Positions 1 to 62,543 are shown, numbered from the stretch's first letter. The stretch: DNA of 64,000 nucleotides from Minisyncoccota bacterium (GCA_035546615.1 DASZWM010000007.1:1-64000), one strand, 5' to 3'. Translations and numbers: made by a program. The notes: generated by a model not told the origin, from the letters alone.

Positions 1-3000
1 GTTAATGGTCGAGATGGCGGTAATGCCGCTGGTCCTTGCAGCCTGGAGCGCCTCGGCCGGAACGTTCGTGCCGATACCGACATTACCCGCGATATATGCA
101 TTGCCGGTGGTCGTTGCGCCTCCATATATAGTGAGTCCCCCAGCCTGCGTTCCGTTGCCGATGGTTGAGGAAGCGTTTACTTGGATGCCGATGGTCGTGG
201 TCGGCGTAAGCGCGCCTGCCACGATCTTCCAGTCGCGGAACGCGTTGGCGTAGTAATTTTCTGAGGTAGTGCTGAAAGCAAGACCCTGCGACGCCCAGTA
301 GTTGGCGCTCGTGGTGGAGAAGAAGTTGTTTTGAGACTGCCAGTAGTTTGCAGAAGTGGTGCTGAAGGAATTCGCGAGGTAGAACGAGCCTTCGTTGCCG
401 TCGAGGGTGCCGGTCCAGTCGCCGGTGCGGTCCAGCGTGAGCGCGCCCCCGACGTTGGTGAGGCCGCTGCCGGTGAGGTCGGAGAAGTACTCGCTGTTGA
501 GGCCAAGGATGGACGTATATATAGAAGAGGAGGTGGCATTTGTGAGGGTAGTGTTGCCGTTAAAGCGGTTGGTGCCGCTGAAGGTGTTGTTGTCGGCAAG
601 GAGGGTCGACGAGGCGAACGTCCAGGTAGAGGTGGAGAAGGTGTAGAGCGTGCCGTTGGATGTGACGCCGAGGGCGCCATTTGCGTAGTTGGAGAGCTGC
701 ACCGTTCCGGTGGCAGTAAGGCTGCCGCCGAGGTACGTGTTGCCGCCGACCGAGAGCCGGGCGAACGGGCTGGTGGTGCCGATGCCGAGGTTGCCATTTC
801 CGTCCACGCGAGCGCGCTCAATGTTATTGGTACCGATCACGAACGGCTGCGCCGTAAGGGTGCCCACGTAGTAGCCGAGGTTCGAAGCGCCGTCGGCGAA
901 CATGAACAAGCGGTCCGCGCGCGGCGCGCCGAAGAGGCTGCCGAGGCTGCTTGAGGAACCGCCATAGAGGAAACCGCCGTACGATGCGAATGAACCGCGA
1001 TCGTTCTCAAGGTAGAACGACGCCTGATTGCTTGCGCTCGTGCCCTGGAAGTACGCGTTGTAATAGCCGGGATTCTTAACGCTGAGCGGGAATCCGGTCG
1101 TGGTATAAGAAGCCTGGATATCGAGCCGGGCGCTCGGCGACTGCGTGCCGATGCCGACGTTGCCCGCGATATACGCGTTCCCCGTCGTCGTCGCCGAGCC
1201 ATTTACCGTAAGGCCGAGCGTGCCGTTGCCGATGGTCGAGCTTGCATTAACGATGATGCCGAGCGTCGTGGTCGGCACGAGCGCGCCGTTGACTATCTTC
1301 CAGTCGCGGAAGGCATTGGCGTAGTAATTCTCAGACGTGGTCGAGAAGGCGAGGCCCTGAGATGAGAAGTAGGAAGCGGACGTGGTCGAGAAGAAGTTGT
1401 TCTGCGTCTTCCAGTAGTCGGCGCTAGTCGTGGAGAAGAAGTAGCCCTTATCGAAGAGGCTAAGGAAGTAGGTAGCCGATGTGGTCGAGAACGCGTTGCC
1501 CTGGTTCTGGCTCAAGAAGTAGACGGCCGAGGTAGTACTGAAGCTGTTGGCAAGATAGTACGAGCCTTCCTGTCCATCGAAGGTACCGGTCCAGTCGCCG
1601 GTGCGGTCCAAAGTGAGAACGCCACCAACGTTGGACAAGCCCGAGCCAGTTAGGTCGGTAAAGGTCTCGTTGTTGATGCCGAAGGAAGTGGTGGTTGCGT
1701 TAGTGGAGAGCAGGTTCGGGAGGACGTTCTGTGCCGAGGTGGTGGCAATATAGTTTGCCGCAACTACCTGGCCGACTACCGAGAGCTTGCTGTACGGCGA
1801 GGTGGTGCCGATGCCGAAGTTGCCGGCAGGTGCGATGACGTTATTAGAAGAGCCGACGGCGAGGTAGAGGTCATTAAGGCCGCCCGGGGTATAGATACCG
1901 GCATCGCTTGAACCGTCGACGTTGGTAGTGACGTGCGCGTCGCGGTTAAGCGTGATGCCGGAGGTGAAGTAACCATATCCGCCGCTTACTTGCAGGGCGG
2001 CAAGCGGATTGCTGGTGCCGATGCCAACGTTGCCGCTAAAATATGCGCGGCCAGTTGTGGTCGCCGGGCCGTTGACCGTAAGGCCGAGCGTGCCGTTGCC
2101 GATGGTCGAAGAAGCATTTACCTGGATGCCGAGAGTTGTTGTAGGCGTGAGCGCGCCTGCAACTATCTTCCAGTCGCGGAACGTGTTGGCATAGTAGTTC
2201 TGTGAAGTAGTGCTGAACGCGTTGCCCTGGTTGACAGAGAGGAAGTATGCGGCCGAAGTAGTAGAGAACGCCTGGCCCTGATTTTGCGCGAGGAAGTACA
2301 AAGCGCTGGTGGTCGAGAAGAAGTAGCCCTTGTCGAAGAGGCCGAGCGTCGTGGTGGAGAGGCGCGAGTTGAACGAGTTCCAATCGCTTGATGAGAGGTA
2401 GCCGTCGGTAGAAGCGCCCGACTGGCTGATGGTAAACACGCCGGTCGACGGGTTGTACGAGAGCGGGCCGGTTGCCGAGAGCGAGGTCGAGGAGATCTTG
2501 TTGTTGAAGGTGGTCCAGTCAGTGCTTGAGAGATAGCCGTTCTGCGCGCCGTTGGCCTGCTGGATGGACAAGGTATTGCCGGAGAAGGAGAGCGGACTCG
2601 AGACCGTGGTCGAGATGACGGAACCGTTTGCATTTGTGGAGAGAAGAGTGTTCAGGAGGCTGGTGATGGCGAGATTGGTCGTTGTCGCCTGCTGGGTCGT
2701 AAAATTGCCGCTCGCGTCGATCCTGGTCAAGACCGTGCCGGCGTTATTGAGGAACTGCGCCAAGTCCGCGGTCTGGGCCGAAGCGCCCTGTACCGTAAAG
2801 ACCTTCTTCGCGGCGCTTGAGTTAATGAGGCCGAAGAGCGATATAGGCACCGTCGTATTGGTCCAATTGAGGTCGGTTATCTGGGTCGAAGACGCATTGA
2901 ACTGCAGGCGGTTGAGCTGGGTGTCCGCGCCGTAGGTGCCGCCCATGAAGGTCGCGTTATTGTTGCTCGCGTTCGTTATCTGGAAGTACGTGGTCGAGGT

Positions 3001-6000
3001 CGCCGTGGCGCCGCCGCCCGTCCAGCCCCCGCTGTTATACACAACGCGCAGTTGGCCGCCGCCGCCCACGACATTGTCGCCCTTGAGGATGACGCCGTTG
3101 CCGGAGGTCTGGTTGTAGATGGTCGGGTTCGCGCCGACGGAGTTAAGCGTAAGCGTGTTGTTTGTAGAGTCGAATGCAAAGTCGGAATCATCGGTTATCT
3201 GGCTGCCTGCGCCGATAAAAGGCACGCGGCCGGCAGTGAGGCTCGTAACCCGCAGATTAGTGGTTGTCGCGGTGCCGTTTACCGTTAGGCCGCCGCCCGC
3301 CGCGCCGTTGCCAATCGTTGAGCTTCCGAAGACGCCGATGGATTGCACCGTCGAGCTTGGCGTGAGGAAGGCTGTAGCGCCGGAACCAACGATCTTCCAG
3401 TCACGGAACGCGTTGGCGTAGTAGTCCTGGGATGTGGTCGAGAATGCGCCGCCGGTCGAGGCCCAGTAATTTGCGGATGTGGTCGAGAAGAAGTAGCCCT
3501 TGTCGAAGAGAGCGAGCGTCGAAGTGGAGAGGCGCGAGTTGAAGGTGTTCCAGTCGGTCGACGAGAGATAGCCGTCGGTCGAGCCGCCGGACTGGCTGAT
3601 AGAGAACACGCCGGTTGAGACATTGTACGAAAGCGGGCCGGTCGCGGAGATAGAGGTGGAGCCGAGCAGGCCCAGCGTGTTGGTTGCAGTAAGGCTGTAG
3701 CCGCCGGTGCTGTTGCCTACCAGAATATTTCCGTACGAAGGAGCGGCCGAAAGTCCGGTGCCGCCGTACATGACGCCGAGCGATGAGGTTGCAACCACCG
3801 AGCCCTGCGCGTTGGTGGTAAGGAGCGCGGAGCGCACGCCGAGGATAGCCAGGCCGGTGGTCGTGGCGGTCGTCGTGGTGGAGTAGCGGCCGACGAAGTC
3901 GGTGAGCGTCGTGGTGCCCAAGACCGCGAGGCCGCCGCGGGAGAAGATGCCCGAGATGCCGACATTAATGCCCCCCTGCGCGTATATGTCGCCGCCGACA
4001 TTGAGGTTGTCGGCAATGTTCGCAACGCCGACCTCAAGCGAGCCGATGTTGGCGGCCGGGAGCTTCGCGCCGTTTATATCGACCACCTTCACCGTACTGC
4101 TGTTGCTGGTGACGTAGGCGTATTTGCCCGAGAGGCTCAGGCCGCGCGGGTTGCCGCCGGTCGCGAACGTGCCGACCGAAGTGATGCTCGCGAGGTTGTG
4201 CACGTCGAGCACGACGAGGTTGCCGGACGTGTCGGTAACGTACGCGTAGTCGCCGGCCGCCTCAACCGTGTAGTAGCCGGTGCCGGTCTTGGAGCCCGCC
4301 AGGCTGATGGAGGCCGGGTTGCTTATGTCGAGCACGTAGAGGCCGCCGGAAGCGTCCGCAACATAGAGGTAGCGGCCGGACGCGTACAAGGTCGCCGGAA
4401 CGCTCAGGCCGGTGTAGCTGTATACGGCCGTCGGGCTTGCCGGGTTGCTGATGTCGACGGAAGTGACGGAGCCGTTGTAGATGGAGCCCACGTACAGGTA
4501 CTTGCCCTGCACCGCGACCGAAGACCCCGAGCCGATAGGCGTGCCGGGGGACGAGTACTGGCCCACGATAACGGGCGCCGCCGGGTTGGCGATGTCGACG
4601 ATGTTGACCATGCCGGTGTCGAGGTTCGGCGCGTAGAGGTAGCGGCCGGAGAGCGCGAGCGAAATAGGATGGCCCGCGCCGGAGAGCGTGGAAACGAGGG
4701 TCGGTACCGCCGGGTTGGAGACGTCGATGATAACGAGACCCGCGGACGCGTCGCCGACGTACGCGTACTTGCCGGAGACTACGATGCTCTGCGCTTGGGT
4801 GGTGCCCGTGTAGGAGCCGACGAGCTTGGGGTTGCCCGGCTGGGTGATGTCGAGGATGCGCACGTTTCCGGCGGCAACGTAGGAGTAATGGCCGGAAGTG
4901 TTGATGCCGTATGAAGTCCCGCCGACTAAGGTCGAGGTCGCCAGGGTCGGCGTGCCGCTTGCCACCTGGAGTATATTGCCGCCCGCGACGGTGAGCTTCT
5001 GGGAAGGCGACGTGGTGCCGAAGCCGGCGAGACCGCCGAAGGACGCGATGCCCGAGTTGTAGAAGCCGGTCGTGGTGGCGTTGTCGATGGTCGCGCCTCC
5101 GACCACTTCGAGCTTGGAGAGCGTCGAGGTCGAGGTAAAGCCGATGAGCACCTGGTCGGTCGCGGTCGTCAGGCGGATGCCCGAGCCGTTGAAGTGGGTC
5201 CAGTTGACGTCCGAGCCGGACGCGCCCGCGTCGGTGCCGCACTGGAATTGTCCGGTCGCGGAGTTCCATAGGAGCTTGTCGACCGAGCCGGAGCAGGAAG
5301 AGAGGTTGGCGCCGGTTATCCTGCCGTTTATGTACAGGTTCGTCGTGGTCGAAGTGCCGCTCGTAATGACATCGCCCGGGAAGGTATACACGCTCGAGGA
5401 ATTGCCGCCGAAGGTTCCCGCCTGCGTGGTGATGACGCCGGTGGATGAGGTGTACGAGATGACCGACTGGCCCGAGAGGCTGGTCGAGGAGATCTTGTTG
5501 TTGAAGACGCTCCAGTCGGTATTTGTCAGGAAGCCCGGCTGGGAAGCGTTGGCCTTTTGAGCGCCGGCGTAGTCGATGGAGATAAGGCCGGCGCCGTTAT
5601 CGTTGAAGTCGGACGAAGCGAAGGATGCGGCGCCCTTAGTGCTGCCGTCTGCCTTCGCGTCCTGAATGGAGAACGTGCCGGAGCTTGGGTTGTAGAACAG
5701 CGGCGCGGTGGCGTTGAGCGAGCCGGTCGTAACGAGGCCGAGGCTCGAGGTCGAGGTAAGCGTGTACGTACCATTGCTGTTGCCCACCAAAAGGTTTCCG
5801 TAGCTCGGAGGGGTCGAGAGTCCCGTGCCGCCGTAGATGACCGAGAGCGTCGACGTTGCCGACACGGCGCCGTTAATGGCCTGCAGGGGTCCGGTGATGT
5901 TGGAGATGGTTACGCCGCCGTTGAATGTGTTGCTGTTCGTAAACGTATTGCTGGAGTAGGTCTTCGGAATCGTGCTTGATGCGTCGACGAAATGGATAGC

Positions 6001-9000
6001 CGACGTGGTTGAGAAGAAATTGTTCTGCGTCTTCCAGTAGTCGGCCGAACTGGTCGAGAAGCCGACGAGCGTCTGCTGGGAGAGGAAGTAAAGGGCTGAT
6101 GTCGTGGAGAACGCCTGACCCTGATTGACAGAGAGGAAATATGAAGCAGAAGTCGTGGAGAAGAAATTATTCTGCGTCTTCCAGTAATCGGCCGAGGTGG
6201 TGGAGAACGAGTTCGCGAGGTAGTACGAGCCTTCCTGGCCGTCCAGCGTGCCCGTCCAGTCGCCCGCGCGGTCGAGCGTCAATGCGCCGCCGACATTCAG
6301 GAGGCCGGAGCCGGTGAGGTCGGTGAAGTACTCGGAGTTGAGACCCAGTATCGCGGAGTACAGCGAGGTAGAGGTCGCGTTGGTGGTGGTGCCGAAGGTA
6401 ACGGTGAGAGCGGAAATGGTCGACGACGAGTATGCGGTGAGGCCTGCGCCGAACTGCTGCAAGGCGGCCCAGGTATTCGAGTTCGAGAGGTTAAGGCCCC
6501 AATCGCTTATCCCCGCGCTGCCGTCATAGCTTGAGCCGGCGAGCGTCGCGTTGTGGGAAAGCGCGCTGAGGCTGGTGCCGAGCTGCTTGCCGCTGATGGT
6601 CGAGTTAGTAAGTCCCGCGTTATCGAGCGTGCCGGAAAGCGTAGGGGCGAACGTGAATGCGCCGCCCGTGTTCGTTATCCTGATGCCGAGAGTCTGCCCG
6701 TTCTGCGTGAGCGTCGAGGTGGAAAGCGTAAGCGCGCCCGTCTGCGCCGTGCCGCCGCCGGTCTGCGAAAGCGACAGGACGCCGGTGTTTGAGATGACGC
6801 CCGTTGCGGGAACATAGCTGATGCCCGTACCCGCCGAGAGAGAAGTGGAGCCGAGCAGGCCCAGTGTGTTCGTGGCGGAGAGCGCGTAGCCGCCGGTGCC
6901 GTTCCCTACCAGAATGTTTCCGTACGACGGCGCTGCGGTCAGCCCCGTGCCTCCGTACAGGACGCCGACGGAAGAGGTTGCGGAAACTACGCCATTGATC
7001 GCCTGGAGCGGGCCGGTGAGGTTGGAGATAGTTACGCCGCCGTTGAAGGTATTGGAATTCGTGAACGTGTTGGCGGTGTAGGTCTTCGGGATGGTCGTGG
7101 AAGACGTAACGAACCACATAGCGGAAGTGGTGGAGAAGAAGTTATTCTGCGTCTTCCAATAGTCTGCAGAGGTAGTCGAGAACGCAAGATTCTGGTTATT
7201 TGCTAGGAAGTAGAGGGCGGAGGTGGTGCTGAAGGCATTGCCCTGGTTCTGCGAGAGGAAGTATGCGGCGCTGGTGGTCGAGAAGAAATAGCCCTTGTCG
7301 AAGAGGCCGAGGGTGGAGGTGGAAAGGCGGCTGTTGAAGGAATTCCAGTCCGTGCTTGAGAGATAGCCGTCGGTCGAGCCGCCGGACTGGCTGATAGTGA
7401 AAATACCGGTCGAAGAGTTATAGGCGAGCGGCGCAAGTGCCGAGAGGCTGGCCGGGGTAAGGAAGCCGAGGCTGGATGTCGGCGCAAGGTCGTAGCCGCC
7501 TGCGCTGTTGCCCAGGAGCACCTGGCCGTAGGCCGGAGCGAGCGTGAGGCCGGTGCCGCCGTACACGACACCGATGCTCGTAGTTGCCGACACGAGGCCG
7601 TTAATAGCCTGCAGCGGCCCGGTGAGATTGGAAACGTACAGCGAGTCGATGGTTGCGAGCGTTGTCGACGAAGTAAGGACGCGCGTGCTGGTGGCGAAGA
7701 AGCTGCTTGAGGTCGCGTTGGTAAACTTTGCCGTTGAGGGGGTCGTGGCGCCGATAGGCGTGCTGTTTATCGTGCCGTTCGAAATAGTGAGGTTGTCGGC
7801 TACGTACGCGTCGGCTACGATGCTGCCGTGCCAAACGCCGGTCGAGACGGTTCCGACGTTGGAGGAGCCGAGCACCGTCAGCGTGGTGAAGACCGCGCCC
7901 GGCGCGTTGAGCGTCGTGCCGTCGAAGGTGAAGGTATTGTCCCCGACGACCGCGTCTTCCGCCTGGTTGGTGAAGAATATCTGTCCTGCAACGTACGTAT
8001 CCGGCGCATCAGTGAGCCCGAGGAACGTGGTTGAGCCGCCTCCGCCGCCGGTGCCGCAGTCGCTGCCGGTGCCCGACACCACGCCCGCCGCGTTGACGCG
8101 CAAGCACTGCGTCGTACCGGTAATGGAGCCGAGCGTAAGTCCGCCCCCGAGCGTGAGCGCGCCGGTCGATGAGAACGTCGAGGTCGCCGTCGCGCCGAAG
8201 GAGGCCGACTGGTAGACCGAGAGCTTCGACGTGGAAGCCGCGTTGAACTGCTGGAGCTGGGACCAGGCGTTTGCGGTAGTGGTGCCGAAGGCGAGGCTGA
8301 ACTGTCCGGTGGTCTGGTTGTACTGGACCGGGTACGAACCGGAGATGCTGGTGGTGCCGAGCTTGCCGTTGAAAAGGGTCCAATCGCTCGAGGAAAGATA
8401 TCCGTTCGTTGAGCCGTTAGCCTGCGCGATGGAGAACACGCCGGTGTTCCCGTCGTACGAAAGCGGCGCGAGCGCGGAAAGCGACGATGTGGAGAGCAGG
8501 CCGTTGGCGGCGGCAAAGTAGCTTGCGGAAGTCGTGGAGAAGAAATTGCTGACCGACTTCCAGTACTCCGCGGAGGTGGTGCTGAAGGCATTGCCCTGGT
8601 TCTGCGAGAGGAAATACGCGGCCGAAGTTGTCGAGAACGCGTTGCCCTGGTTCTGGGCGAGGAAGTATGCGACGCTGGTGGTTGAGAAGAAATTATTCTG
8701 CGTCTTCCAGTAGTCAGTCGAGGTGGTCGAGAAGAAATTGCTGACAGACTTCCAGTACTCAGCGGATGTCGTGGAGAAGCCGGTCGAGGTGCCGCCGAAC
8801 ATGATGCCGAGGCTGGAGGTCGAGACGAGGTCGTAGCCGCCGGTTGCGTTTCCGACAAGCACCTGGCCGTAGGCCGGCGCGGTCGTCGTGCCGGTGCCGC
8901 CGTTTGCAACGCCGAGCGTGCCGCCGAGCACCAAAGTACCCGAGGACGTGATGGGGCCGCCCGTGAAGGAGAGCCCGGTGGTGCCGCCGTTGGCTGCAAC

Positions 9001-10629
9001 CGATGTTACCGAGCCGCCGCCCGAGCCGCCCAGGCCCAGAGTCGAGGTTGAGGTTACAGCCCACTTCACGCCGTCCCACACCAGCACGTCGCCGAACGCG
9101 CCGCCGCCGATGTGCGGCACCGTTGAGGAAGCGGAGATGTACGCGCCGACAGCATAGTTGCTGGAAGTGGTGGAGAAGAAGTCGCGAGCCGTCTTCCAGT
9201 AGTCGGCGGAGGTGGTGGAAAATCCGCTAAGGCTCTGAAGCGAGAGGAAGTATGCCGCTGAGGTTGTAGAAAATGCCTGGCCCTGATTTTGGCTGAGGAA
9301 GTACGCGGCGGAGCTGGTCGAGAAGAAGTAGCCCTTGCCGATGGAGTCGAGATACGCCTGCGCGTTCTGCGGCGTGAAGTACAGGTTGGTGGCGCCTTCG
9401 TCGAGGCCGTCGGTCGTGGTCGCGTACCACGCGGAGAGCGACAGCTTCGAGTCAAGCGCGTTCTGGAGATCGGTTTGGTTGGAAAGCGTGCCGACGATAT
9501 TGCCCCACGACGGATTGCCGCCCGCGGCGATGCCGAGCGTCGAGGTGGAAACCAGGTCGTAGCCGCCCATGGAATTGCCGAGAAGGAGCTGGCCGTAGGT
9601 CGGGGCAGTGGAAGTGCCGGTGCCGCCGTTTATCGCATTGAGCACGCCGGAGAGCGTGAACGTGCCGGTCGACGTGATAGGCCCGCCGAGGAAGGAGAGG
9701 CCGGTCGTGCCGCCGCTTGCGTCAACCGACGTTACCGAGCCGTTCCCGCCGCCCGAATTGCCGCCGCCGTTGTGGCTGTGCGAAGGGTTCGGCGAAAGCG
9801 CCGCGGCCTCTATTTTCGGGAGAAGGAAATTCTGCAGCGCGAGCAGGCGGAGGTTGAGTATGTCTTCGGTGACGCCGGAACCCTGCACCAGACGCTCGGT
9901 AACCGGATAGGTGTTGTAGACCGGGTACGAGTTCTGGACGATCGTCGTGGTCGCGGTGCCTGCGGCGACCGGAGCAGACGGGCCGTACGCCGGCGAGGTC
10001 TGCGTGCCCGCCGCATACTGCGCGGGAACGCGCGGGCCGAAGAGGAACGAAAATACCTGCGAGAAGACATCGGACGCGACAGACGGCGATGACTTCGCCG
10101 GAAGGGAGAATCCGAACTGGAGCGGATGCGCCCCGAAGAACGGCGACTCCACCTGCGCGAGCGACGCCGCAAGCGTGGTCTGGTTCTGCATCGCGACCTC
10201 GCGCTGGTGCATCGCGCCGGCGTACGCTACGGCGCCGAAGAGCAGCATGCCCCCCAGCGCCATCACCGCGTTGCGCGCCAGAAGCGAAGAGAAGCGCGAG
10301 GCGACGCCGTTCGCGGAAGGAACGGCGTCGGCCTCAACCGCCTTCTTCGCAGGCAGGCCGTTTGCCTTGCGGTACGTCTCGTTCTCAAGCTTGCGCTCCT
10401 TCGCTAACGCAGACGCGCGCTCAAGCTTTGCCTGAGCGCGCGCCGCCTCGAATTCTCCAAGGGACTTCTCCTCGACGAACCATGCGCCGTTTATCTGCGA
10501 GCCGCGCAGCTTGCCGTCGCGCAAAAGGCGGCCGACATAGTCCTGAGCGCAGTTCATCCGCTTGGCGGCAGAACGGGCCGAGAGCATCGGTTCGCCTGAA
10601 TTTGAGATGATTTGTTTAGCGGGTGACAT
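1..10629 (-). CDS. Giant repetitive cell-surface protein, 3' partial (at least 3543 aa in window; stop lies beyond window start). N-terminal HTH_17-like domain, coiled segment, single TM helix, then Gly/Ser/Thr-rich repeats, FSTTSA-type 16-aa tandem repeats and a 7-blade LVIVD beta-propeller. Alternative start ATG 10587.
   Basis: Revcomp of 1-60 gives ...GIGTNVPAEALQAARTSGITAISTIN, revcomp of 4981-5040 gives ...SFGGLAGFGTTSPSQKLTVAGG, and the ATG at 10629 is in frame with the codon ending at nt 1 (10629 = 3 x 3543). No listed ORF on either strand in 1-10600 carries the FSTTSA repeats, so the true frame is uninterrupted and lacks an in-window stop. All listed ORFs here are Ser/Thr/Pro/Arg-rich alternative-frame artefacts. 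Confidence 0.8.
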   Translation of the reverse strand, partial: MSPAKQIISNSGEPMLSARSAAKRMNCAQDYVGRLLRDGKLRGSQINGAWFVEEKSLGEFEAARAQAKLERASALAKERKLENETYRKANGLPAKKAVEADAVPSANGVASRFSSLLARNAVMALGGMLLFGAVAYAGAMHQREVAMQNQTTLAASLAQVESPFFGAHPLQFGFSLPAKSSPSVASDVFSQVFSFLFGPRVPAQYAAGTQTSPAYGPSAPVAAGTATTTIVQNSYPVYNTYPVTERLVQGSGVTEDILNLRLLALQNFLLPKIEAAALSPNPSHSHNGGGNSGGGNGSVTSVDASGGTTGLSFLGGPITSTGTFTLSGVLNAINGGTGTSTAPTYGQLLLGNSMGGYDLVSTSTLGIAAGGNPSWGNIVGTLSNQTDLQNALDSKLSLSAWYATTTDGLDEGATNLYFTPQNAQAYLDSIGKGYFFSTSSAAYFLSQNQGQAFSTTSAAYFLSLQSLSGFSTTSADYWKTARDFFSTTSSNYAVGAYISASSTVPHIGGGAFGDVLVWDGVKWAVTSTSTLGLGGSGGGSVTSVAANGGTTGLSFTGGPITSSGTLVLGGTLGVANGGTGTTTAPAYGQVLVGNATGGYDLVSTSSLGIMFGGTSTGFSTTSAEYWKSVSNFFSTTSTDYWKTQNNFFSTTSVAYFLAQNQGNAFSTTSAAYFLSQNQGNAFSTTSAEYWKSVSNFFSTTSASYFAAANGLLSTSSLSALAPLSYDGNTGVFSIAQANGSTNGYLSSSDWTLFNGKLGTTSISGSYPVQYNQTTGQFSLAFGTTTANAWSQLQQFNAASTSKLSVYQSASFGATATSTFSSTGALTLGGGLTLGSITGTTQCLRVNAAGVVSGTGSDCGTGGGGGSTTFLGLTDAPDTYVAGQIFFTNQAEDAVVGDNTFTFDGTTLNAPGAVFTTLTVLGSSNVGTVSTGVWHGSIVADAYVADNLTISNGTINSTPIGATTPSTAKFTNATSSSFFATSTRVLTSSTTLATIDSLYVSNLTGPLQAINGLVSATTSIGVVYGGTGLTLAPAYGQVLLGNSAGGYDLAPTSSLGFLTPASLSALAPLAYNSSTGIFTISQSGGSTDGYLSSTDWNSFNSRLSTSTLGLFDKGYFFSTTSAAYFLSQNQGNAFSTTSALYFLANNQNLAFSTTSADYWKTQNNFFSTTSAMWFVTSSTTIPKTYTANTFTNSNTFNGGVTISNLTGPLQAINGVVSATSSVGVLYGGTGLTAAPSYGNILVGNGTGGYALSATNTLGLLGSTSLSAGTGISYVPATGVISNTGVLSLSQTGGGTAQTGALTLSTSTLTQNGQTLGIRITNTGGAFTFAPTLSGTLDNAGLTNSTISGKQLGTSLSALSHNATLAGSSYDGSAGISDWGLNLSNSNTWAALQQFGAGLTAYSSSTISALTVTFGTTTNATSTSLYSAILGLNSEYFTDLTGSGLLNVGGALTLDRAGDWTGTLDGQEGSYYLANSFSTTSADYWKTQNNFFSTTSASYFLSVNQGQAFSTTSALYFLSQQTLVGFSTSSADYWKTQNNFFSTTSAIHFVDASSTIPKTYSSNTFTNSNTFNGGVTISNITGPLQAINGAVSATSTLSVIYGGTGLSTPPSYGNLLVGNSNGTYTLTSTSSLGLVTTGSLNATAPLFYNPSSGTFSIQDAKADGSTKGAASFASSDFNDNGAGLISIDYAGAQKANASQPGFLTNTDWSVFNNKISSTSLSGQSVISYTSSTGVITTQAGTFGGNSSSVYTFPGDVITSGTSTTTNLYINGRITGANLSSCSGSVDKLLWNSATGQFQCGTDAGASGSDVNWTHFNGSGIRLTTATDQVLIGFTSTSTLSKLEVVGGATIDNATTTGFYNSGIASFGGLAGFGTTSPSQKLTVAGGNILQVASGTPTLATSTLVGGTSYGINTSGHYSYVAAGNVRILDITQPGNPKLVGSYTGTTQAQSIVVSGKYAYVGDASAGLVIIDVSNPAVPTLVSTLSGAGHPISLALSGRYLYAPNLDTGMVNIVDIANPAAPVIVGQYSSPGTPIGSGSSVAVQGKYLYVGSIYNGSVTSVDISNPASPTAVYSYTGLSVPATLYASGRYLYVADASGGLYVLDISNPASISLAGSKTGTGYYTVEAAGDYAYVTDTSGNLVVLDVHNLASITSVGTFATGGNPRGLSLSGKYAYVTSNSSTVKVVDINGAKLPAANIGSLEVGVANIADNLNVGGDIYAQGGINVGISGIFSRGGLAVLGTTTLTDFVGRYSTTTTATTTGLAILGVRSALLTTNAQGSVVATSSLGVMYGGTGLSAAPSYGNILVGNSTGGYSLTATNTLGLLGSTSISATGPLSYNVSTGVFSISQSGGSTDGYLSSTDWNTFNSRLSTSTLALFDKGYFFSTTSANYWASTGGAFSTTSQDYYANAFRDWKIVGSGATAFLTPSSTVQSIGVFGSSTIGNGAAGGGLTVNGTATTTNLRVTSLTAGRVPFIGAGSQITDDSDFAFDSTNNTLTLNSVGANPTIYNQTSGNGVILKGDNVVGGGGQLRVVYNSGGWTGGGATATSTTYFQITNASNNNATFMGGTYGADTQLNRLQFNASSTQITDLNWTNTTVPISLFGLINSSAAKKVFTVQGASAQTADLAQFLNNAGTVLTRIDASGNFTTQQATTTNLAITSLLNTLLSTNANGSVISTTVSSPLSFSGNTLSIQQANGAQNGYLSSTDWTTFNNKISSTSLSATGPLSYNPSTGVFTISQSGASTDGYLSSSDWNSFNSRLSTTTLGLFDKGYFFSTTSALYFLAQNQGQAFSTTSAAYFLSVNQGNAFSTTSQNYYANTFRDWKIVAGALTPTTTLGIQVNASSTIGNGTLGLTVNGPATTTGRAYFSGNVGIGTSNPLAALQVSGGYGYFTSGITLNRDAHVTTNVDGSSDAGIYTPGGLNDLYLAVGSSNNVIAPAGNFGIGTTSPYSKLSVVGQVVAANYIATTSAQNVLPNLLSTNATTTSFGINNETFTDLTGSGLSNVGGVLTLDRTGDWTGTFDGQEGSYYLANSFSTTSAVYFLSQNQGNAFSTTSATYFLSLFDKGYFFSTTSADYWKTQNNFFSTTSASYFSSQGLAFSTTSENYYANAFRDWKIVNGALVPTTTLGIIVNASSTIGNGTLGLTVNGSATTTGNAYIAGNVGIGTQSPSARLDIQASYTTTGFPLSVKNPGYYNAYFQGTSASNQASFYLENDRGSFASYGGFLYGGSSSSLGSLFGAPRADRLFMFADGASNLGYYVGTLTAQPFVIGTNNIERARVDGNGNLGIGTTSPFARLSVGGNTYLGGSLTATGTVQLSNYANGALGVTSNGTLYTFSTSTWTFASSTLLADNNTFSGTNRFNGNTTLTNATSSSIYTSILGLNSEYFSDLTGSGLTNVGGALTLDRTGDWTGTLDGNEGSFYLANSFSTTSANYWQSQNNFFSTTSANYWASQGLAFSTTSENYYANAFRDWKIVAGALTPTTTIGIQVNASSTIGNGTQAGGLTIYGGATTTGNAYIAGNVGIGTNVPAEALQAARTSGITAISTIN

Positions 10630-10966
10630 GTTGCCGAAAAAACTTTTGTTTGTGCGGAGAGTTCGGGTATTTCGTGTTTCAACAGAAGAGGTAGCGACCC
10701 GCCGATGTGCCGCTACCCTGTTACTAATTATTTTACGCGAGTGTCGCGCTTTTTCCGTCTATAATATGCGAAGAAAAATGTGGATATCTTATTGCACTGC
10801 AACGGAATTTTGAAAATTTATTTTCAAAAAATAATCAGCTTAAAATGAGTTTGCTGTTTAAAATTCCATGAAAAAATATTCGGCTTACATACCCTTTTCT
10901 CGTCTTAAAAATTGTATAGGAGAGATATGTTGTAATCAAAAGCTACATCGGCTCTCCCATACGATA

Positions 10967-11138: not shown

Positions 11139-11978
11139 CTAATGCAAAGAGTAGCCGACGCTTGCGGTCTTCCCCGCTTCTATGACCGTCGTTGAATTGA
11201 CGAGCAGTGAGCTCAGCGCGACGACCGCGAACACGACGGCGCCGAGCGTCATGATGCTGAATGCCGGCATGAGCATGCCGACGGAATATTTTTTTGACGG
11301 CGCGTATTCCGTTATTGTCACTTCCTCGTCCGCGTCCTCTTCTGCCGCTTTCGGCATGACCGACGCTTTCGCTTTTTTGCTTGCGGGCTTCTGTATTTCC
11401 GGCAGCGAAGGCGCCGCGTCTTCTATATAGCGCAGGCCCGTCTTTTTCTTTGTCTCCGCAAGGCGTATCGGGATATGTATAGATTCGCGCGCCGCTTCGG
11501 GCTCTATCTCCACAAAAACTTTTTCTTCCGCCTCTTCAACTTTTATTTCTTCAGGCGCGAAGTCTGCTATCAGCTCTTCCACTTGGATCGGGCGGCGGAA
11601 ACTTTGTATCGGTTCCGGAATGACGGGAGCAGTCGCCTCAGCTTCGGTCTCCTCTTCTTCAGCTGTCTCTTCTTCTTTTTCCGCAGCCGGCTCCGGCTTC
11701 TCTTCCTCGGTCTCAGCGGGTTCCGGAACTTCTTCAGCCGCTTCGGCACGCACGACGGGCGCTACCGAAAGTATCTTCTTCGGCTCCTCCGCCGGCTTCG
11801 GGTTCTTGAGGTAGTCAGCCAGAAACTCGGCATCCACATACCAGGAGCGGCCCACTTTCTGGCCCACTATCTTTTTGGCGCGTATGAGCTGGCCGATATA
11901 GTCGGCATGGTATTTATACTGCTTTGCGGCAAGCCGAGTCGAGATATACCGCTTGCCCGAGATTTCCAGTTCGTCCAT
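11139..11978 (-). CDS. Membrane-tethered HTH_17 (excisionase/MerR-like) domain protein, 279 aa. N-terminal HTH, about 170-aa Glu-rich acidic linker, C-terminal TM helix
   Basis: N-term ISTRLAAKQYKYHADYIGQLIRAKKIVGQKVGRSWYVDAEFL fits the HTH_17 pattern (AAxxLxVSxxTVYRLIxxGxLPAxRIGRxWRI). C-term MLMPAFSIMTLGAVVFAVVALSSLLV is hydrophobic. N-term is paralogous to the giant gene N-term LSARSAAKRMNCAQDYVGRLLRDGKLRGSQINGAWFVEEKSL. Confidence 0.7.
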   Translation of the reverse strand: MDELEISGKRYISTRLAAKQYKYHADYIGQLIRAKKIVGQKVGRSWYVDAEFLADYLKNPKPAEEPKKILSVAPVVRAEAAEEVPEPAETEEEKPEPAAEKEEETAEEEETEAEATAPVIPEPIQSFRRPIQVEELIADFAPEEIKVEEAEEKVFVEIEPEAARESIHIPIRLAETKKKTGLRYIEDAAPSLPEIQKPASKKAKASVMPKAAEEDADEEVTITEYAPSKKYSVGMLMPAFSIMTLGAVVFAVVALSSLLVNSTTVIEAGKTASVGYSLH

Positions 11979-13501: not shown

Positions 13502-15601
13502 TTACTGCCCCAGCAGATAGAGCTGCCTGACCTCCGCAGCCGGGAGCGCGCGGTTGTAGACGCGCACATCGTCGAGCTTGCCGTTGAAGGTATACATAGC
13601 CCCGCTTCCGTTTCCCATGCTGCCGATATATGTATTAAAAGAAGCGGGCGTACCGGGATCGGTGGTCTGCGCGGAGGAAGCATCGAGGGAGCCGTTGATG
13701 TATATTTTCTTTGTCGCCCCGTCGTAGGTAAAGACGACATGCGTCCATGTAGAAGTCGCTATCGTAGCGGCGGATACGATCTGGCTCAGCGAACTGTTCC
13801 AAATGCCTCCCGAGACCTTTCCTGCTTGTATGTACATATCTATGCCTTTGTACGTGCCGCAGCAGTCCCGGGCGTTGCTGTACACGTAGTTGTATAGATA
13901 GGTCTGAGGAGTATTGTCGTATATCCATGCGGAAATAGTAAATCGGCTCGGGGTCAGCGAATTGCTGCTGCCCACATTTATTCCGCCGGTATTCATCCCG
14001 CTAAAACTGAACCCCTGTCCCATCCTGCCTATCGTCTTGCGGCTCGAAGTGGCGTTGTTGGTACCGACTAAGTATCCATTAAAACCACTCCCCGAACGGT
14101 CGTACACCTTGTCGGTTACGTCCGGCCCGTCGAAGGTCCAGAGGCCGACCAGCCCGCTTGAGAGGCTGCTGTCGGAAGACAAGTCGGGTGAAGGCGTATT
14201 TATCTGTGCGGTACCCTGCCTATATAAGGCCGCTATTTCCGCCGCCGAGAGCGCGCGGTCGTAGATGCGCACATCGTCCATGAGGCCGCCGAAGAACGAG
14301 GCGGAAGGATTGATATTGGCGTCCTTGCCGATAAAGAGGACGCTCGGTGCTGTGAGCGACTGGGTCCCCCCGGTACCCGTGTTGTCAAGAACCCCGTTCA
14401 CGTACACTGTCATGGCGCCGGTCGATTTGACGCGGGTCGCGGTTACGAGCACCCAATTGCCTGTGTTAACATCGGCATTCGAGAATACGGTCGTATCAGA
14501 GTTACCGACGCCGAAAGCAAGTTTGCCGTTATAAACCGTCATGCCGAAGTCGTTCGTTACGCCCCCGACTTCGCCGTCTACTATCCCCTGCCCGCAGTAC
14601 CATTGCCCTGCGCAGCCCGCGGTATTCTGCGTCGTCTTTATCCATGCGGAGAGCGTGAAGTCGTCCGATACGGTGCGATTGACGGGTATATAGCTGGTGC
14701 TCCCGTCGAACAAGAGCGCCTTGCCGTGCTTTCCGCTTGCCCAGGCCGGAAGCGTCGAGCCGGAGAGCGTCCCGTCGTTGCTATTGCCGCTTGAGTCCCC
14801 CGCAATAGTACCCGTACCCTCGTTGAAGTCCCACGAGCCGACGAGGCCGACGTTGTTAGGCGCGCGCACCTGCGCCGCCCCGCCCCTGTACAGAGCGACG
14901 ATTTCCGCATCCGACAACGCGCGATTGTAGAAACGGAAATCATCAATCGTCCCGACGGTAGGCTCGCCGCCCGAATACTTTCCCAATATCCAGGAAGACT
15001 TCGCAATGCTGGTGGTGTCTGTCTGGGCGCTTCCCAGTGACGCGCCATTCACAAAAACGGACACATTCGAGCCGCTTCTCTTTGCAACAATGTTGTACCA
15101 AACGCCTGCCGCGGGGGTAAACGGCCAGCTGAGCGTATGAGGCCCGGAAGGCGTTCCCCGTATGTATAGCATCACCACATGCGCCGTATTATCGAACTCG
15201 ATCAATACTCCGGCGGTTCCCGCATATCCGCCGTCAAATGTCGTCTGGTAGCGCGCGGGGAAGCCGTCGAACCTGATCCAATGAGAAATAGTAAAATCTC
15301 CCGTTCCTATCTGGAATGCGTCGCTGACCGGGATGCTTACGTAATTGTCGCTGTTCGTGAATGAAAGGCCCTTGCTGAACCTGCCCGTAACCCATGTTGG
15401 CAGCGTGGTGCCCGAGAGCGTGCCTATGTGGCCGTTCCCGCTCAAATCGCCCAGCTTAGTTCCCGAGGCGTCGTTGAAGCTCCAGTACGCTATGAGCCCT
15501 AAATTATTCGCGGGTTTGGCAAGCGCGGCGGCCTGCGCGGCGGCGGGCAGAAAAAATGCCGCGAATATGAAACATATCGCGATGCCGGGAAATACCCTCA
15601 T
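13502..15601 (-). CDS. Secreted protein with signal peptide and three tandem LamG-like (concanavalin A-like lectin/glucanase, Laminin_G_3) domains
   Basis: Signal peptide MRVFPGIAICFIFAAFFLPAAAQAAA. Three repeats begin with LxxxWxFxxxxGxxxxDxSGxGxxGTL and end with IDDFRFYNRALSDAEIVALY / MDDVRIYDRALSAAEIAALY / LDDVRVYNRALPAAEVRQLY. Confidence 0.7.
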   Translation of the reverse strand: MRVFPGIAICFIFAAFFLPAAAQAAALAKPANNLGLIAYWSFNDASGTKLGDLSGNGHIGTLSGTTLPTWVTGRFSKGLSFTNSDNYVSIPVSDAFQIGTGDFTISHWIRFDGFPARYQTTFDGGYAGTAGVLIEFDNTAHVVMLYIRGTPSGPHTLSWPFTPAAGVWYNIVAKRSGSNVSVFVNGASLGSAQTDTTSIAKSSWILGKYSGGEPTVGTIDDFRFYNRALSDAEIVALYRGGAAQVRAPNNVGLVGSWDFNEGTGTIAGDSSGNSNDGTLSGSTLPAWASGKHGKALLFDGSTSYIPVNRTVSDDFTLSAWIKTTQNTAGCAGQWYCGQGIVDGEVGGVTNDFGMTVYNGKLAFGVGNSDTTVFSNADVNTGNWVLVTATRVKSTGAMTVYVNGVLDNTGTGGTQSLTAPSVLFIGKDANINPSASFFGGLMDDVRIYDRALSAAEIAALYRQGTAQINTPSPDLSSDSSLSSGLVGLWTFDGPDVTDKVYDRSGSGFNGYLVGTNNATSSRKTIGRMGQGFSFSGMNTGGINVGSSNSLTPSRFTISAWIYDNTPQTYLYNYVYSNARDCCGTYKGIDMYIQAGKVSGGIWNSSLSQIVSAATIATSTWTHVVFTYDGATKKIYINGSLDASSAQTTDPGTPASFNTYIGSMGNGSGAMYTFNGKLDDVRVYNRALPAAEVRQLYLLGQ

Positions 15602-53038: not shown

Positions 53039-53748
53039 GGCACTATCTCGAATTCGTCGCCGGGCTGCGGCTTTTGCGGCGTGAGCGCGCGCTTTTGCAT
53101 GCGGGCCCACAGCGCTCCGGCGGTACCCAGCGCCATGACAGCCGCCGCGCCCGCGCCCCACACCAGCAGGGGCGGAAGCTGCGCCGATCCGGCCGCGGCC
53201 GCAAGCTCTTCCGGTTCGGTATAGGAAAGCTCGCCCGGATTCGCTGCAGAACCGGCCGCTGGCGTCTTCGCTTTTGCGGTGGAAGTTTTTGAAGCGGCCG
53301 GCTTTTTTGCGGCAGGCGCGGGCTTCGGCTTGGGTGCTGCGGTATACGACATGGAGTACTCAGTTTTCCCGGAGGCATTCACAAGGGCGAGCGTCTCCCC
53401 TTCGTTTGAAAGCGAGAACGAGCTCTTGAATACGCTGCGGGTCTCCCCGGGATGCTCGCTCAAGTAGGTCGTCGGATCTTCCGCGATTACCGCCGACGCC
53501 CCGGGCGAGAGCGTGGCGCTTCCGGCAGCCGCGGTCAGCTTGTGATTGACGCCTCCTTCGAGGAACTTGTATTTTGAAATATCGACGCTGTCCTTCCCTT
53601 TGTTGGCTATCTCGACCCACTCGCGCCCGTCGTCGCTGCCCGGCAGGTCGTACTCGACATGCGTGATTTCAACGGCCGCAAAGGCGCTCGCAGGGAGCGC
53701 TAGAAATGCGAATAGAAGAAAAAGGCGGAGGCTAGTGTTTGCGCGCAT
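53035..53748 (-). CDS. Lamin-tail-domain (LTD) surface protein: signal peptide, LTD, Ala/Pro/Lys-rich linker, C-terminal TM anchor
   Basis: MRANTSLRLFLLFAFLALPASAFA; VEITHVEYDLPGSDDGREWVEIANKG...GETLALVNASG (LTD); C-term LPPLLVWGAGAAAVMALGTAGALWA. Confidence 0.7.
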   Translation of the reverse strand: MRANTSLRLFLLFAFLALPASAFAAVEITHVEYDLPGSDDGREWVEIANKGKDSVDISKYKFLEGGVNHKLTAAAGSATLSPGASAVIAEDPTTYLSEHPGETRSVFKSSFSLSNEGETLALVNASGKTEYSMSYTAAPKPKPAPAAKKPAASKTSTAKAKTPAAGSAANPGELSYTEPEELAAAAGSAQLPPLLVWGAGAAAVMALGTAGALWARMQKRALTPQKPQPGDEFEIVP

Positions 53749-55663
53749 CGGGGTCGTCTGACCCGTAGTCGGCGTCCGGCGCGAGGTCGGGGTCGACGGA
53801 AAGCATAGACCGCAACACGTCTTCTGGCAACCCGGCCGGCTCCTGCGCGGGCGTCGCCTGCGGTTTTGGCTTCGGAAGCTCTTCTGCGGCGGCGGGAGCC
53901 ACCTTCTTGAGAGCGTCTTTAAGAGCCGTACCGTATCCCTGGTCCTGGCGCGGCGGGGGTGCCGGAGGAGCGTCCGCCTTTCGCGCTACCACCTCGGCAA
54001 GCGCTTCCCGCAGGCTCTTGGCGCCGCTTAAAGGCGGGGTTTCAGGGACGGGCGGCGGAGTGGGGCGCGGGCGTTCAGCTCGCCTTTCGGGCTCGCGGCG
54101 AGGCTCGGGCGCCTTTGGCCGGGGCGGGCGGGGCGCTTCTTCGACGCGGGCCGCGGGTTCCGGAGCGGGAGCGGGCCTTTCAGCCGGCGGCGCAGGGCGT
54201 TCGGGAGCGCGCTCAGGAGCCGCTATCTCCACAAAAACGGGCGTTGGGGCCGGAGGCTGAGGTTTTGGCTCTGCCCTGGGCGCCGCCGGAGCAGGGCGCG
54301 GACGGGGCGCTGAAGATGCGGCAGGCTTGCGGTCCGGAACGAACTTCGGCTTCTGAAGCGGCTCCATTGGGTCCTCCTCGTGCCACTTGCGAATCGTTTC
54401 CTCGACTTCCGCGCGCGGCCGGCTGAACACCCGGCGGGAATTCTCGATGACCTGGTCGACGTACTTCTGGGGCGGCGGGTCAAACGGCGGCAGGGTCGTG
54501 GCGGAGAAGGGCGTCGAGCCTACGCCGTCTATCATGAGCGTCAGGTATATCTGCGCGAAGCCAAGGTTTACGAGGTCGGTCGCCTCGAACTGCGGGCTGA
54601 ACACGGTCTCGAGCACCTCGGCGTCGAACGGCCCCACGCGGAAGGTCACGGTCGTGCCTACGTTGCCGAACACGGCGTCCCGCACCTCCTCCTCCATCTG
54701 TTCTATATATTGGTGCGCGATGATGAGGTTCAGCTTATATTTGCGGGCCTCCGAGAGGATATCGGCGAAGGATTGGTTGGAAAAGCTCTGGAATTCGTCC
54801 ACGTAAAAGTAGAACTGCGGCAGGGTCGCCAGCACGTCGGCAGAAACATCGGCGCGCGACATCGCCGCCAGGTATATCTTCGTGACCAGCATGGAGCCGA
54901 GCAGCGTCGCGTTTACTTCCCCCACGCGGCCCTTGGAGAGGTTGATAATGAGTATCTTCTTGTCGTCCATCGCCTGCCGGAAGTCGAACGACGACTTCGC
55001 CTGCCCGACGATATTGCGAATGAGCGGGTTGCTGGTGAATTGCCCTATCTTGTTCTGAATAGCCGGTGTGGCCTCCTGCGTGTAGCGGTCGCTGTAGGCG
55101 GCGAACTCGTCCGCCCAGAAACTCTTCACGATTGGGTCGGTCACGTTGTCCACTACCTTCGCGCGGAACTTCTTGTTGACGAGCATCCGGTTGACGTCCA
55201 GGAGCGTCGAGCCCTCGTACTCCAGGAGGGCCAACAGGGTATTGGCGAGGATGTACTCCATGCGGGCGCTCCACGCGTCCACCCATATCTTGCGGAAGGC
55301 TGAGAGCAGCCCGGACACCACGAGATGCCGCTTGTCGTAGCCCACGTCCTCCATAACGTTGAAGGCGATGGGGTGCTCCATGTCGAACGGCGCGAAGTAC
55401 ACCACGTCCTTGATGCGGTGCTCGGGCACGTACTCCATGATGCGGTCGGCCGTGCCGCCGTGCGGGTCGATAAAGGCCATCCCCTCGCCGTTGCGGATAT
55501 CCTGTATCGCCATGTTCTCCAGCAGGGTCGATTTGCCCATACCGGTCTTGCCGATGATGTACATGTGGCGCACGCGGTCGCGGCGCTTTATCCCGAAAGC
55601 CTGGTCCTTGCCGCGGGAGTTCGTCTGGGCGAAATAGGTTATCTTCTGATCGTCGTCAGCCAT
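53732..55663 (-). CDS. FtsK/HerA/TraG-VirD4 superfamily P-loop ATPase (type IV coupling protein-like) with about 220-aa Pro/Ala/Arg/Glu-rich disordered C-terminal tail. Probable start MADDDQK at 55663; track start 55687
   Basis: HMYIIGKTGMGKSTLLENMAIQDIRNGEGMAFIDPHG (Walker A plus the DPKGE-like motif of TraG/VirD4), FYVDEFQSF (Walker B), KYKLNLIIAHQYIEQM (GIRLxLIxQS-like). No N-terminal TM. Confidence 0.6.
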   Translation of the reverse strand: MADDDQKITYFAQTNSRGKDQAFGIKRRDRVRHMYIIGKTGMGKSTLLENMAIQDIRNGEGMAFIDPHGGTADRIMEYVPEHRIKDVVYFAPFDMEHPIAFNVMEDVGYDKRHLVVSGLLSAFRKIWVDAWSARMEYILANTLLALLEYEGSTLLDVNRMLVNKKFRAKVVDNVTDPIVKSFWADEFAAYSDRYTQEATPAIQNKIGQFTSNPLIRNIVGQAKSSFDFRQAMDDKKILIINLSKGRVGEVNATLLGSMLVTKIYLAAMSRADVSADVLATLPQFYFYVDEFQSFSNQSFADILSEARKYKLNLIIAHQYIEQMEEEVRDAVFGNVGTTVTFRVGPFDAEVLETVFSPQFEATDLVNLGFAQIYLTLMIDGVGSTPFSATTLPPFDPPPQKYVDQVIENSRRVFSRPRAEVEETIRKWHEEDPMEPLQKPKFVPDRKPAASSAPRPRPAPAAPRAEPKPQPPAPTPVFVEIAAPERAPERPAPPAERPAPAPEPAARVEEAPRPPRPKAPEPRREPERRAERPRPTPPPVPETPPLSGAKSLREALAEVVARKADAPPAPPPRQDQGYGTALKDALKKVAPAAAEELPKPKPQATPAQEPAGLPEDVLRSMLSVDPDLAPDADYGSDDPDARKH

Positions 55664-55676
55664 TGGATAAAGTATA

Positions 55677-62457: not shown

Positions 62458-62543
62458 GGTGCCCAGGAGAGGACTTGAACCTCCATTCCCTTGCGGGAAC
62501 TACGACCTGAACGTAGCGCGTCTACCAATTTCGCCACCTGGGC
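62458..62543 (-). tRNA. tRNA-Leu(CAG), class II with long variable arm, CCA encoded
   Basis: Minus-strand cloverleaf folded by hand: acceptor GCCCAGG/CCTGGGC; D arm GCG-AAATTGGTAGA-CGC; anticodon stem CTACG/CGTAG with loop TTCAGGT; variable arm TCCC-GCAA-GGGA; T arm GGAGG-TTCAAGT-CCTCT; discriminator A + CCA. Confidence 0.85.

Follow-up and report, generated by a model that had tools for sequence, protein, structure and literature searches.

Repeated DNA blocks in a giant Patescibacteria gene are very probably old in-frame modules of a fibre-like surface protein

What are the repeated DNA blocks at one end of a Minisyncoccota bacterium contig: substrates of ongoing recombination, products of assembly, or parts of a protein? 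The window analysed here, a stretch of 64,000 nucleotides (nt) (GCA_035546615.1, DASZWM010000007.1:1-64000), opens with a giant minus-strand gene in which a first-pass annotation had reported near-identical modules, repeated three to four times between positions 130 and 3430, as hotspots of recombination and assembly collapse. The reading frame is uninterrupted across 1-10758 and, as that annotation implied, starts with the ATG at 10629; its product of at least 3,543 amino acids (aa) is 100% identical to NCBI HVV15503.1 ('hypothetical protein, partial [Candidatus Paceibacterota bacterium]'), from a source contig of 65,450 nt. We find that the repeats are very probably old in-frame module copies in a membrane-anchored giant fibre-like surface protein of an uncultured Patescibacteria (CPR) bacterium, with no present hotspot, and that the feature is an ordinary property of modular giant adhesin genes. 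The gene and the four copies of the core around which the repeats had been described are as follows.

1..10629, minus strand: giant open reading frame (ORF) of at least 3,543 aa, start ATG at 10629, truncated at window position 1 by the source contig end
223..255, minus strand: core copy 4, aa 3459-3469, YYANAFRDWKI, 0 mismatches
1294..1326, minus strand: core copy 3, aa 3102-3112, 3 mismatches to the reference core
2164..2196, minus strand: core copy 2, aa 2812-2822, YYANTFRDWKI, 3 mismatches
3391..3423, minus strand: core copy 1, aa 2403-2413, 1 mismatch

The 33-nt core, GATCTTCCAGTCGCGGAACGCGTTGGCGTAGTA, is the reverse complement of the YYANAFRDWKI codons, and its four matches compare with 0.00 expected from 100 shuffles; there is no further match in the window. 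Its reported sites and three- to fourfold recurrence are thus borne out, as are the larger similar blocks around it, whose alignments span 127-158 nt with 74-83% identity (in one pair just 67 nt, with 79%). A second and a third module family also lie where they had been placed, the former at 380-540, 1556-1686 and 6230-6381 with 71-79% DNA identity, and the latter at 6938-7026 and 7544-7632 with 75% identity across 89 nt. Self-comparison of the gene gives 11 off-diagonals of at least 80% per 100 nt, so the dot-plot free of such similarity that the annotation had named as its refutation is not what is seen. All repeat offsets in the gene are multiples of 3, which agrees with the claim that a giant gene for a surface protein holds module repeats that keep its frame.

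The description 'near-identical' goes too far. The top pair of 100-nt segments is 89% identical (2309 versus 3479) and none gets to 90%; exact repeats extend to 44 nt at most (7217/8570), with three control stretches of the same window giving 13-24 nt. Three plus-strand ORFs had been cited as sharing an off-frame peptide and as confirming the DNA identity independently: 5..253 and 2009..2194 do share the long peptide, whereas 3119..3421 shares only its last 10 residues, TIFQSRNALA, and these peptides are antisense read-through of the repeats themselves and do not count as separate evidence. Tandem Repeats Finder (TRF) reports just two weak tandem arrays in the gene (75-81% matched) and no near-perfect short tandem tracts.

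One explanation of these blocks is that they are active substrates of homologous recombination, expanding and contracting today and producing surface variation within the population across 130-3430. Being in frame, they would allow unequal crossover that keeps the reading frame, and in nine repeat pairs the stretch of exact identity is 25 nt or more, 44 nt at the longest. Exact identity of 25-44 nt is near the minimal RecA processing segment of Escherichia coli. However, the flanks of the exact matches are merely 62-89% identical, no 100-nt pair attains 90%, TRF finds no well-matched tandem arrays, and the synonymous sites match at chance levels.

The synonymous sites also bear on the age of the repeats. 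When 12 repeat pairs are aligned, the first two codon positions agree at 0.66-0.88 and the third at 0.42-0.57. Where the amino acid is identical, four-fold sites agree in 266 of 556 cases (0.48; 0.26-0.64 per pair), as against 0.444 expected by chance from the codon usage of the gene itself, and within the core and the FSTTS unit that precedes it identical synonymous codon pairs number 56 where 56.0 are expected. The core is alike at the DNA level through invariant residues written with preferred two-fold codons (TAC, AAC, TTC, GAC and AAG) and TGG, and the Ser and Thr codons adjoining it are scrambled. Since the synonymous sites are saturated, the duplications are ancient and the copies are not being homogenised; the similarity of the repeat DNA (62-89%) is a by-product of amino acid constraint and strong codon bias. 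More generally, high local DNA identity in genes of this kind can come purely from invariant peptides and strongly biased two-fold codons, and a synonymous-site test tells such constraint apart from recent duplication.

The same conclusion follows from comparison with relatives. A genome scan finds the gene family in Patescibacteria, including Paceibacterota, Saccharibacteria, Kaiserbacteria and others, with complete syntenic orthologues in two metagenome-assembled genomes, L002 (6,790 aa) and L001 (7,526 aa). Judged against these, about half of the window gene is missing, and the complete gene probably codes for ~7,000 aa. A metagenome scan with the unique N-terminus returned only distant relatives, with at most 54% identity. 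The backbone is collinear with both orthologues (aa 1600-2300, for example, match at 53-84%), and the window protein is set apart from each of them by 8 or more block indels, 72-1,216 aa long. Module numbers differ too: within the first 3,543 aa the window protein has 32 FSTTS-type units, the orthologues 17 and 8, and a hidden Markov model (HMM) of the flagged module finds four copies in the window, six in L002 and seven in L001. The window copies are 59-73% identical at the amino acid level to one another and up to 77-81% identical to particular copies in other species; per copy, the best identity is 0.62-0.73 within the gene and 0.64-0.81 in another genome. Because window copies are no nearer to each other than to cross-species copies, they are older than the species split and have not been homogenised within the gene.

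Other members of the family are more dynamic. The longest exact in-frame repeat is 578 nt in locus L020, 428 nt in L041, 340 nt in L003, 322 nt in L025, 188 nt in L022, 93 nt in L001 and 82 nt in L002, from which it follows that this gene family does undergo duplication or conversion inside the gene in recent times. Such module turnover and recent duplication in relatives count in favour of active recombination; recent duplication is seen in those relatives and nowhere in the visible half of the window gene. The earlier expectation of expansion and contraction therefore holds for module number over evolutionary time, given at least 8 block indels per orthologue, and is not supported for the present day in 130-3430. 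Its proposed comparison of related genomes does show different module numbers, with indels of 72-1,216 aa and unequal unit counts, at species level or deeper only. Exact matches of no more than 44 nt, with no 100-nt pair at 90% or above, offer homologous recombination a poor substrate; as four-fold sites are at chance too, we do not retain a recombination hotspot in 130-3430 and consider ongoing recombination there unlikely.

The repeat structure, or part of the gene, might alternatively have arisen by collapse or chimeric joining in a short-read metagenome assembly. The contig does terminate within the gene, assemblies are known to break up at giant repeat-rich genes (bioRxiv 10.1101/2023.11.21.568195), and the exact repeats of relatives, up to 578 nt, are long enough to break or collapse them. 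The assemblies of those relatives may themselves be affected. In the window, however, the longest exact repeat is just 44 nt, shorter than short reads and than large assembler k-mers (the contigs of relatives are named k141), the frame stays open for 10.7 kb, two orthologues from independent assemblies have a collinear backbone, and the repeat copies are individually distinct, each with its own nearest cross-species counterpart. We thus regard an assembly origin as very improbable, and short-read collapse within 130-3430 as unlikely; where assembly does pose a problem is at window position 1, at which the contig breaks, and not in the flagged blocks. In giant surface proteins, diverged module repeats that stay in frame are normal anatomy, and in this window they carry little risk of recombination or mis-assembly.

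Surface proteins of bacteria in the Candidate Phyla Radiation (CPR) frequently serve as targets of diversity-generating retroelements (DGRs), which raises the prospect that the repeats are DGR template and variable pairs, or else slipped-strand phase-variation tracts. Mismatches between copies lack the adenine bias of a DGR (39% involve A and 65% involve C, and transversions exceed transitions), and no reverse transcriptase is found among the 30 neighbouring ORFs scanned. The copies number three to six and are scattered over kilobases, and near-perfect short tandem tracts are lacking. A DGR or slipped-strand origin is effectively refuted by the mismatch pattern, the missing reverse transcriptase and the weakness of the tandem arrays, and we give it next to no chance.

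At the protein level, the product is a mosaic of modules. For 85% of visible residues a paralogous match exists elsewhere in the protein (fragment BLAST, E < 1e-6), at 45-84% amino acid identity. The inventory comprises 32 FSTTS-type units in 8 arrays, 6 GGTG..AP.YG, 5 GYLSSxDW and 3 LDRxGDW modules, 4 modules led by YYANxFRDWKIV and an LVIVD region. The core forms the final, variant unit of an FSTTS array, and three of the four YYANxFRDWKIV-led modules continue into a GNVGIGT..P...L motif; the copies of this 85-aa module are 61-73% identical at the amino acid level to the first copy. What had been called the second family is the LDRxGDWTG module, whose copies share 67-81% amino acid and 71-79% DNA identity. 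The modules are as follows.

16..270, minus strand: 85-aa module copy 4, FSTTS-YYANAFRDWKIV ... STIGNGT..GLT..G.ATTTG.AY..GNVGIGT..P...L, a beta-helix entry and capping loop
1087..1341, minus strand: 85-aa module copy 3, nearest relative a copy in L001 (L001:3901, 81% aa identity), above any window copy
1957..2211, minus strand: 85-aa module copy 2 (alignment and HMM)
3184..3438, minus strand: 85-aa module copy 1, the most divergent, without capping loop
748..864, minus strand: beta-helix/capping-loop element GTLTAQPFVIGTNNIERARVDGNGNLGIGTTSPFARLSV, aa 3256-3294, which aligns with Bdellovibrio fibre structures
352..558, minus strand: LDRxGDWTG..DG.EGS.YL module copy 3
1528..1734, minus strand: LDRxGDWTG module copy 2
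6193..6399, minus strand: LDRxGDWTG module copy 1
1297..1542, minus strand: FSTTS array of 5 units of 15-18 aa, one of 8 arrays (motif map)
226-366, 2167-2319, 3394-3489, 5965-6207, 7087-7284, 8491-8778 and 9127-9324, minus strand: the seven other FSTTS arrays (motif map)
2329..2628, minus strand: two neighbouring GYLSSxDWxxFNxK modules; others at 3499-3663, 7294-7458 and 8329-8493
3649..3861, minus strand: GGTG...AP.YG..L.GN..GGY.L module
5716-5928, 6838-7050, 7444-7656, 8785-8997 and 9511-9723, minus strand: five further GGTG copies
3925..4932, minus strand: LVIVD-repeat region of beta-propeller type, ~aa 1900-2235 (Pfam PF08309)

The FSTTS units, spread over window positions 226-9324, are 15-18 aa long and mostly 15 or 17 (e.g., FSTTSADYWKTQNNF and FSTTSAAYFLSQNQGNA); their 45- and 51-nt spacings are visible in the repeat analysis of the DNA, and they have no match in Pfam, NCBIfam or the PDB. 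The sole Pfam match of the protein is PF08309 (E = 3.5e-49, 164.3 bits against a cut-off of 20.2), with six repeats at ~aa 1945-2230. A search of PDB sequences with aa 2401-3543 gave no match, and nor did an NCBIfam search. The contig break at window position 1 directly follows a capping-loop module.

The module types differ in how widely they are spread. The profile of the flagged module matches 13,934 representative proteins at E <= 1e-3, most of which align to its beta-helix/capping-loop half only, many times per protein. Among the loci compared, FSTTS units are nearly restricted to the CPR (Patescibacteria), with 611 units in 33 of 52 loci as against 7 units over 18 non-CPR loci, and GYLSSxDW modules are also present in proteins of Bacteroidota, Ignavibacteriota and Chlorobiota. 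Homologues of a 401-aa super-repeat of the protein are all unnamed, and some end in Peptidase_S74, K1-lyase_C or SASA domains. The sole non-CPR locus with more than one FSTTS-type unit is L037 (CAZWVK010000139.1), a 6.2-kb contig with 5 units in a bin of Pseudobdellovibrionaceae, a predatory lineage; either this contig is mis-binned or predators share the FSTTS module.

How is such a protein held at the cell surface? A hydropathy scan and profile searches of its N-terminus give two segments.

10210..10284, minus strand: hydrophobic segment, aa 116-140, the only strongly hydrophobic one (hydropathy scan), kept in L001 and L002
10444..10584, minus strand: N-terminal segment like the helix-turn-helix (HTH) family HTH_17, aa 16-62, below the Pfam threshold

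The HTH_17-like segment comes first (E = 4e-3 in the window protein, 1.2e-4 in L002 and 1e-3 in L001, each match spanning nearly the whole profile), followed by aa 116-140, which we take as a single predicted transmembrane anchor; there is no hydrophobic signal at the N-terminus itself. A cytoplasmic HTH-like segment and one transmembrane helix ahead of a giant ectodomain make an unusual fibre anchor, and with such an arrangement the N-terminus may have a role in DNA binding or regulation. Beyond the anchor, Thr, Ser and Gly make up 41% of the ectodomain, with very few charged residues. The plus strand has a GC skew of +0.15 to +0.21 over the giant gene (window 1-10000) and of ~0 in the rest of the window, which is the composition of a coding strand rich in Thr, Ser, Gly and Ala and no replication signal. 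At the other end, no Peptidase_S74 domain is found by Pfam in the visible 3,543 aa, the true C-terminus lying beyond the contig end; the complete orthologues carry a C-terminal Bact_surface_Ig-like domain (PF16403) and no S74.

One of the closest known systems is that of Bdellovibrio bacteriovorus, whose fibres are called mosaic adhesive trimers (MAT; Bd2133, Bd3182, Bd1334 and Bd2439; Caulton et al., Nat Microbiol 2024, PMC10769870). Against the PDB, the super-repeat profile matches Bd2133 (8ond_A, E = 1.9e-12) and Bd3182 (8ojn_C, 1.5e-11), with weaker matches at 9e-6 (8oml_A; Bd1334) and 9e-4 (8ol4_A; Bd2439), and the aligned region covers the beta-helix unit GT..TNN.ERMRID..GNVGIGT..P..L.V. 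The giant protein has the same capping-loop motif as these fibres, VG(G/N)x..P...L (published consensus V-G-G/N-pi-x-x-P-x-x-x-L; PMC10769870), four times, at aa 2868, 3158, 3281 and 3517 (VGIGTSNPLAAL and others), and the two orthologues have it 6 and 15 times. Both systems are modular mosaics in which one end is kept constant for retention and the rest varies, and the carrier of the MAT fibres lives on other bacteria, a lifestyle that the phylum of the window bacterium suggests for it as well.

The differences are substantial. At 3,543 aa or more (~7,000 in the orthologues), the giant protein is 3-7 times longer than MAT fibres (627-1,151 aa). MAT fibres begin with a signal peptide, on which a conserved, beta-rich N-domain of ~130 aa directly follows; in place of the signal peptide, the giant protein has the HTH-like segment and transmembrane anchor, and most of it consists of modules absent from the solved MAT structures (FSTTS, GGTG, GYLSSxDW, LDRxGDW and the LVIVD propeller). 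MAT fibres end in an S74 chaperone/protease or another adhesive tip, whereas the visible part and the orthologues lack S74; and MAT fibres are intertwined homotrimers on the cell surface, a state that the giant protein may share. Because anchoring, size and most modules differ and S74 is missing, we classify it as MAT-like rather than as a MAT member, a likeness that lies, at the sequence level, in the beta-helix unit and the capping loop. In the part of the literature available to us, the name 'mosaic adhesive trimer' appears confined to Bdellovibrio-like or contact-dependent predators.

Phage tail fibres and tailspikes, such as the K1F endosialidase and the T5 L-shaped fibre, combine a triple beta-helix with a Peptidase_S74 intramolecular chaperone, and the giant protein has a weak, fold-level likeness to trimeric beta-helix fibres. 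Peptidase_S74 or K1-lyase_C ends occur in some homologues of the super-repeat, with S74 in neither the window protein nor its orthologues. Unlike phage fibres, the giant protein is membrane-anchored, far longer, and set in a chromosomal housekeeping context without phage genes. A phage origin was rejected on account of those housekeeping neighbours and a single, marginal PHROGs match (E = 0.0018). The giant repeat-rich surface proteins of Omnitrophota and others (bioRxiv 10.1101/2023.11.21.568195) are likewise encoded by multi-kb genes, carry repeated extracellular modules and a membrane anchor, break assemblies inside the gene, and have been proposed to act in cell-cell adhesion; in contrast to them, the window protein has no HEAT, dockerin or TSP3 repeats, is smaller (those exceed 30,000 aa) and belongs to another phylum. 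We found no description of giant Patescibacteria fibres in the literature searched, coverage of which is incomplete.

From these likenesses a working model can be drawn for the window protein. A short cytoplasmic N-terminus and one transmembrane anchor would carry a Thr/Ser/Gly-rich mosaic ectodomain, whose modules would be the structural units from which a long surface fibre or adhesin is built. By analogy with MAT and phage tail fibres, this fibre would be long and probably trimeric and may mediate contact with a host cell. Unequal recombination in frame would add, remove and rearrange modules for as long as their copies stay alike, after which the copies would drift at synonymous sites. A host-contact role for the fibre fits the finding that a cultivated patescibacterium needs adhesins for its epibiotic growth (PMC10633639).

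Several observations weigh against the view of the repeats as old modules of a fibre. At the DNA level, copies 2-4 carry a mild synonymous excess downstream of the core (41 versus 31.1 expected, z = 2.6), and the peptide YYAN[AT]FRDWKIV is identical across the four window copies, unlike in the otherwise nearest copies of L001 and L002. The strict YYANxFRDWKIV motif is not found in any of 70 genome loci, and this window-specific peptide possibly hints at an old, lineage-specific homogenisation. Recent local gene conversion of the YYANAFRDWKIV core, which the peptide had also brought to mind, is rejected, as synonymous codon identity is at expectation. As the contig ends inside the gene, stronger repeats may sit in the unseen half. 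At the protein level, the AlphaFold2 (AF2) monomer model of aa 3000-3400 is poor, with a mean predicted local distance difference test (pLDDT) score of 53.5 and high confidence only at model residues ~261-300 (aa ~3260-3300), adjoining the 748..864 element; Foldseek template modelling (TM) scores are 0.1-0.3. The poor monomer model would fit an obligate oligomer but is no evidence for one. The Foldseek matches are mostly trimeric fibres, with Bdellovibrio fibres first, and they were used as a lead only, which the sequence profile then confirmed. PDB profile searches give no credible solved-structure relative for the GYLSSxDW, GGTG and LDRxGDW modules, and it is by analogy that we infer a fibre or adhesin role, trimerisation and host-cell binding. 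We nevertheless judge it very probable that the repeats are old module copies in a giant fibre-like surface protein.

A wider speculation, which we put forward as doubtful, is that soil Paceibacterota and many other Patescibacteria might share a conserved, syntenic, membrane-anchored fibre of ~7,000 aa that would be the host-recognition device of these epibionts. It would be built from MAT- or tail-fibre-like beta-helix units and CPR-specific FSTTS arrays, its specificity re-tuned by in-frame shuffling, and its conserved HTH-like N-terminus might physically link it with DNA or with the control of genes. Adhesins are essential in the only patescibacterium with genetic studies (PMC10633639), and for the way in which Patescibacteria find and keep their host cells, a conserved giant fibre whose sequence is homologous to Bdellovibrio prey-recognition fibres offers a specific candidate, as well as a parallel among epibionts, predators and phages that can be put to the test. 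If true, host recognition by this protein would carry the principle of Bdellovibrio prey-recognition fibres over to the bacterial radiation with the most uncultured members. Homology to MAT fibres and the unusual anchor, an N-terminal HTH and transmembrane segment, are of modest interest in their own right.

The giant gene sits among chromosomal housekeeping genes, with GatB, Obg, SecA, MurB, glycosyltransferases and Mur ligases as neighbours, and Rfam identifies a single tRNA in the window (62460-62543). Other features are as follows.

11139-11978, minus strand: 279-aa ORF between GatB and the giant gene, no Pfam match
13502-15601, minus strand: protein of 699 aa, encoded two genes upstream of the giant gene, with a hydrophobic leader at its N-terminus and three Laminin_G_3 (concanavalin-like lectin) domains
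~23000-53000: large surface-polysaccharide cluster
53732-56714, minus strand: TrwB-like type IV secretion coupling protein (651 aa), adjoining a PGA_cap capsule-synthesis protein

The Laminin_G_3 protein is syntenic in L002 and only 36% identical there, whereas GatB, which lies between it and the giant gene, is 78% identical to the GatB of the orthologous locus; it is a fast-evolving and probably secreted partner. The polysaccharide cluster holds Wzy_C/TPR proteins, UDP-glucose dehydrogenases and epimerases, together with many glycosyltransferases of the GT1, GT2 and GT11 types, a Wzt-type ABC ATPase and an FkbM methyltransferase. Type IV secretion system genes are reported to be essential in a cultivated patescibacterium (PMC10633639).

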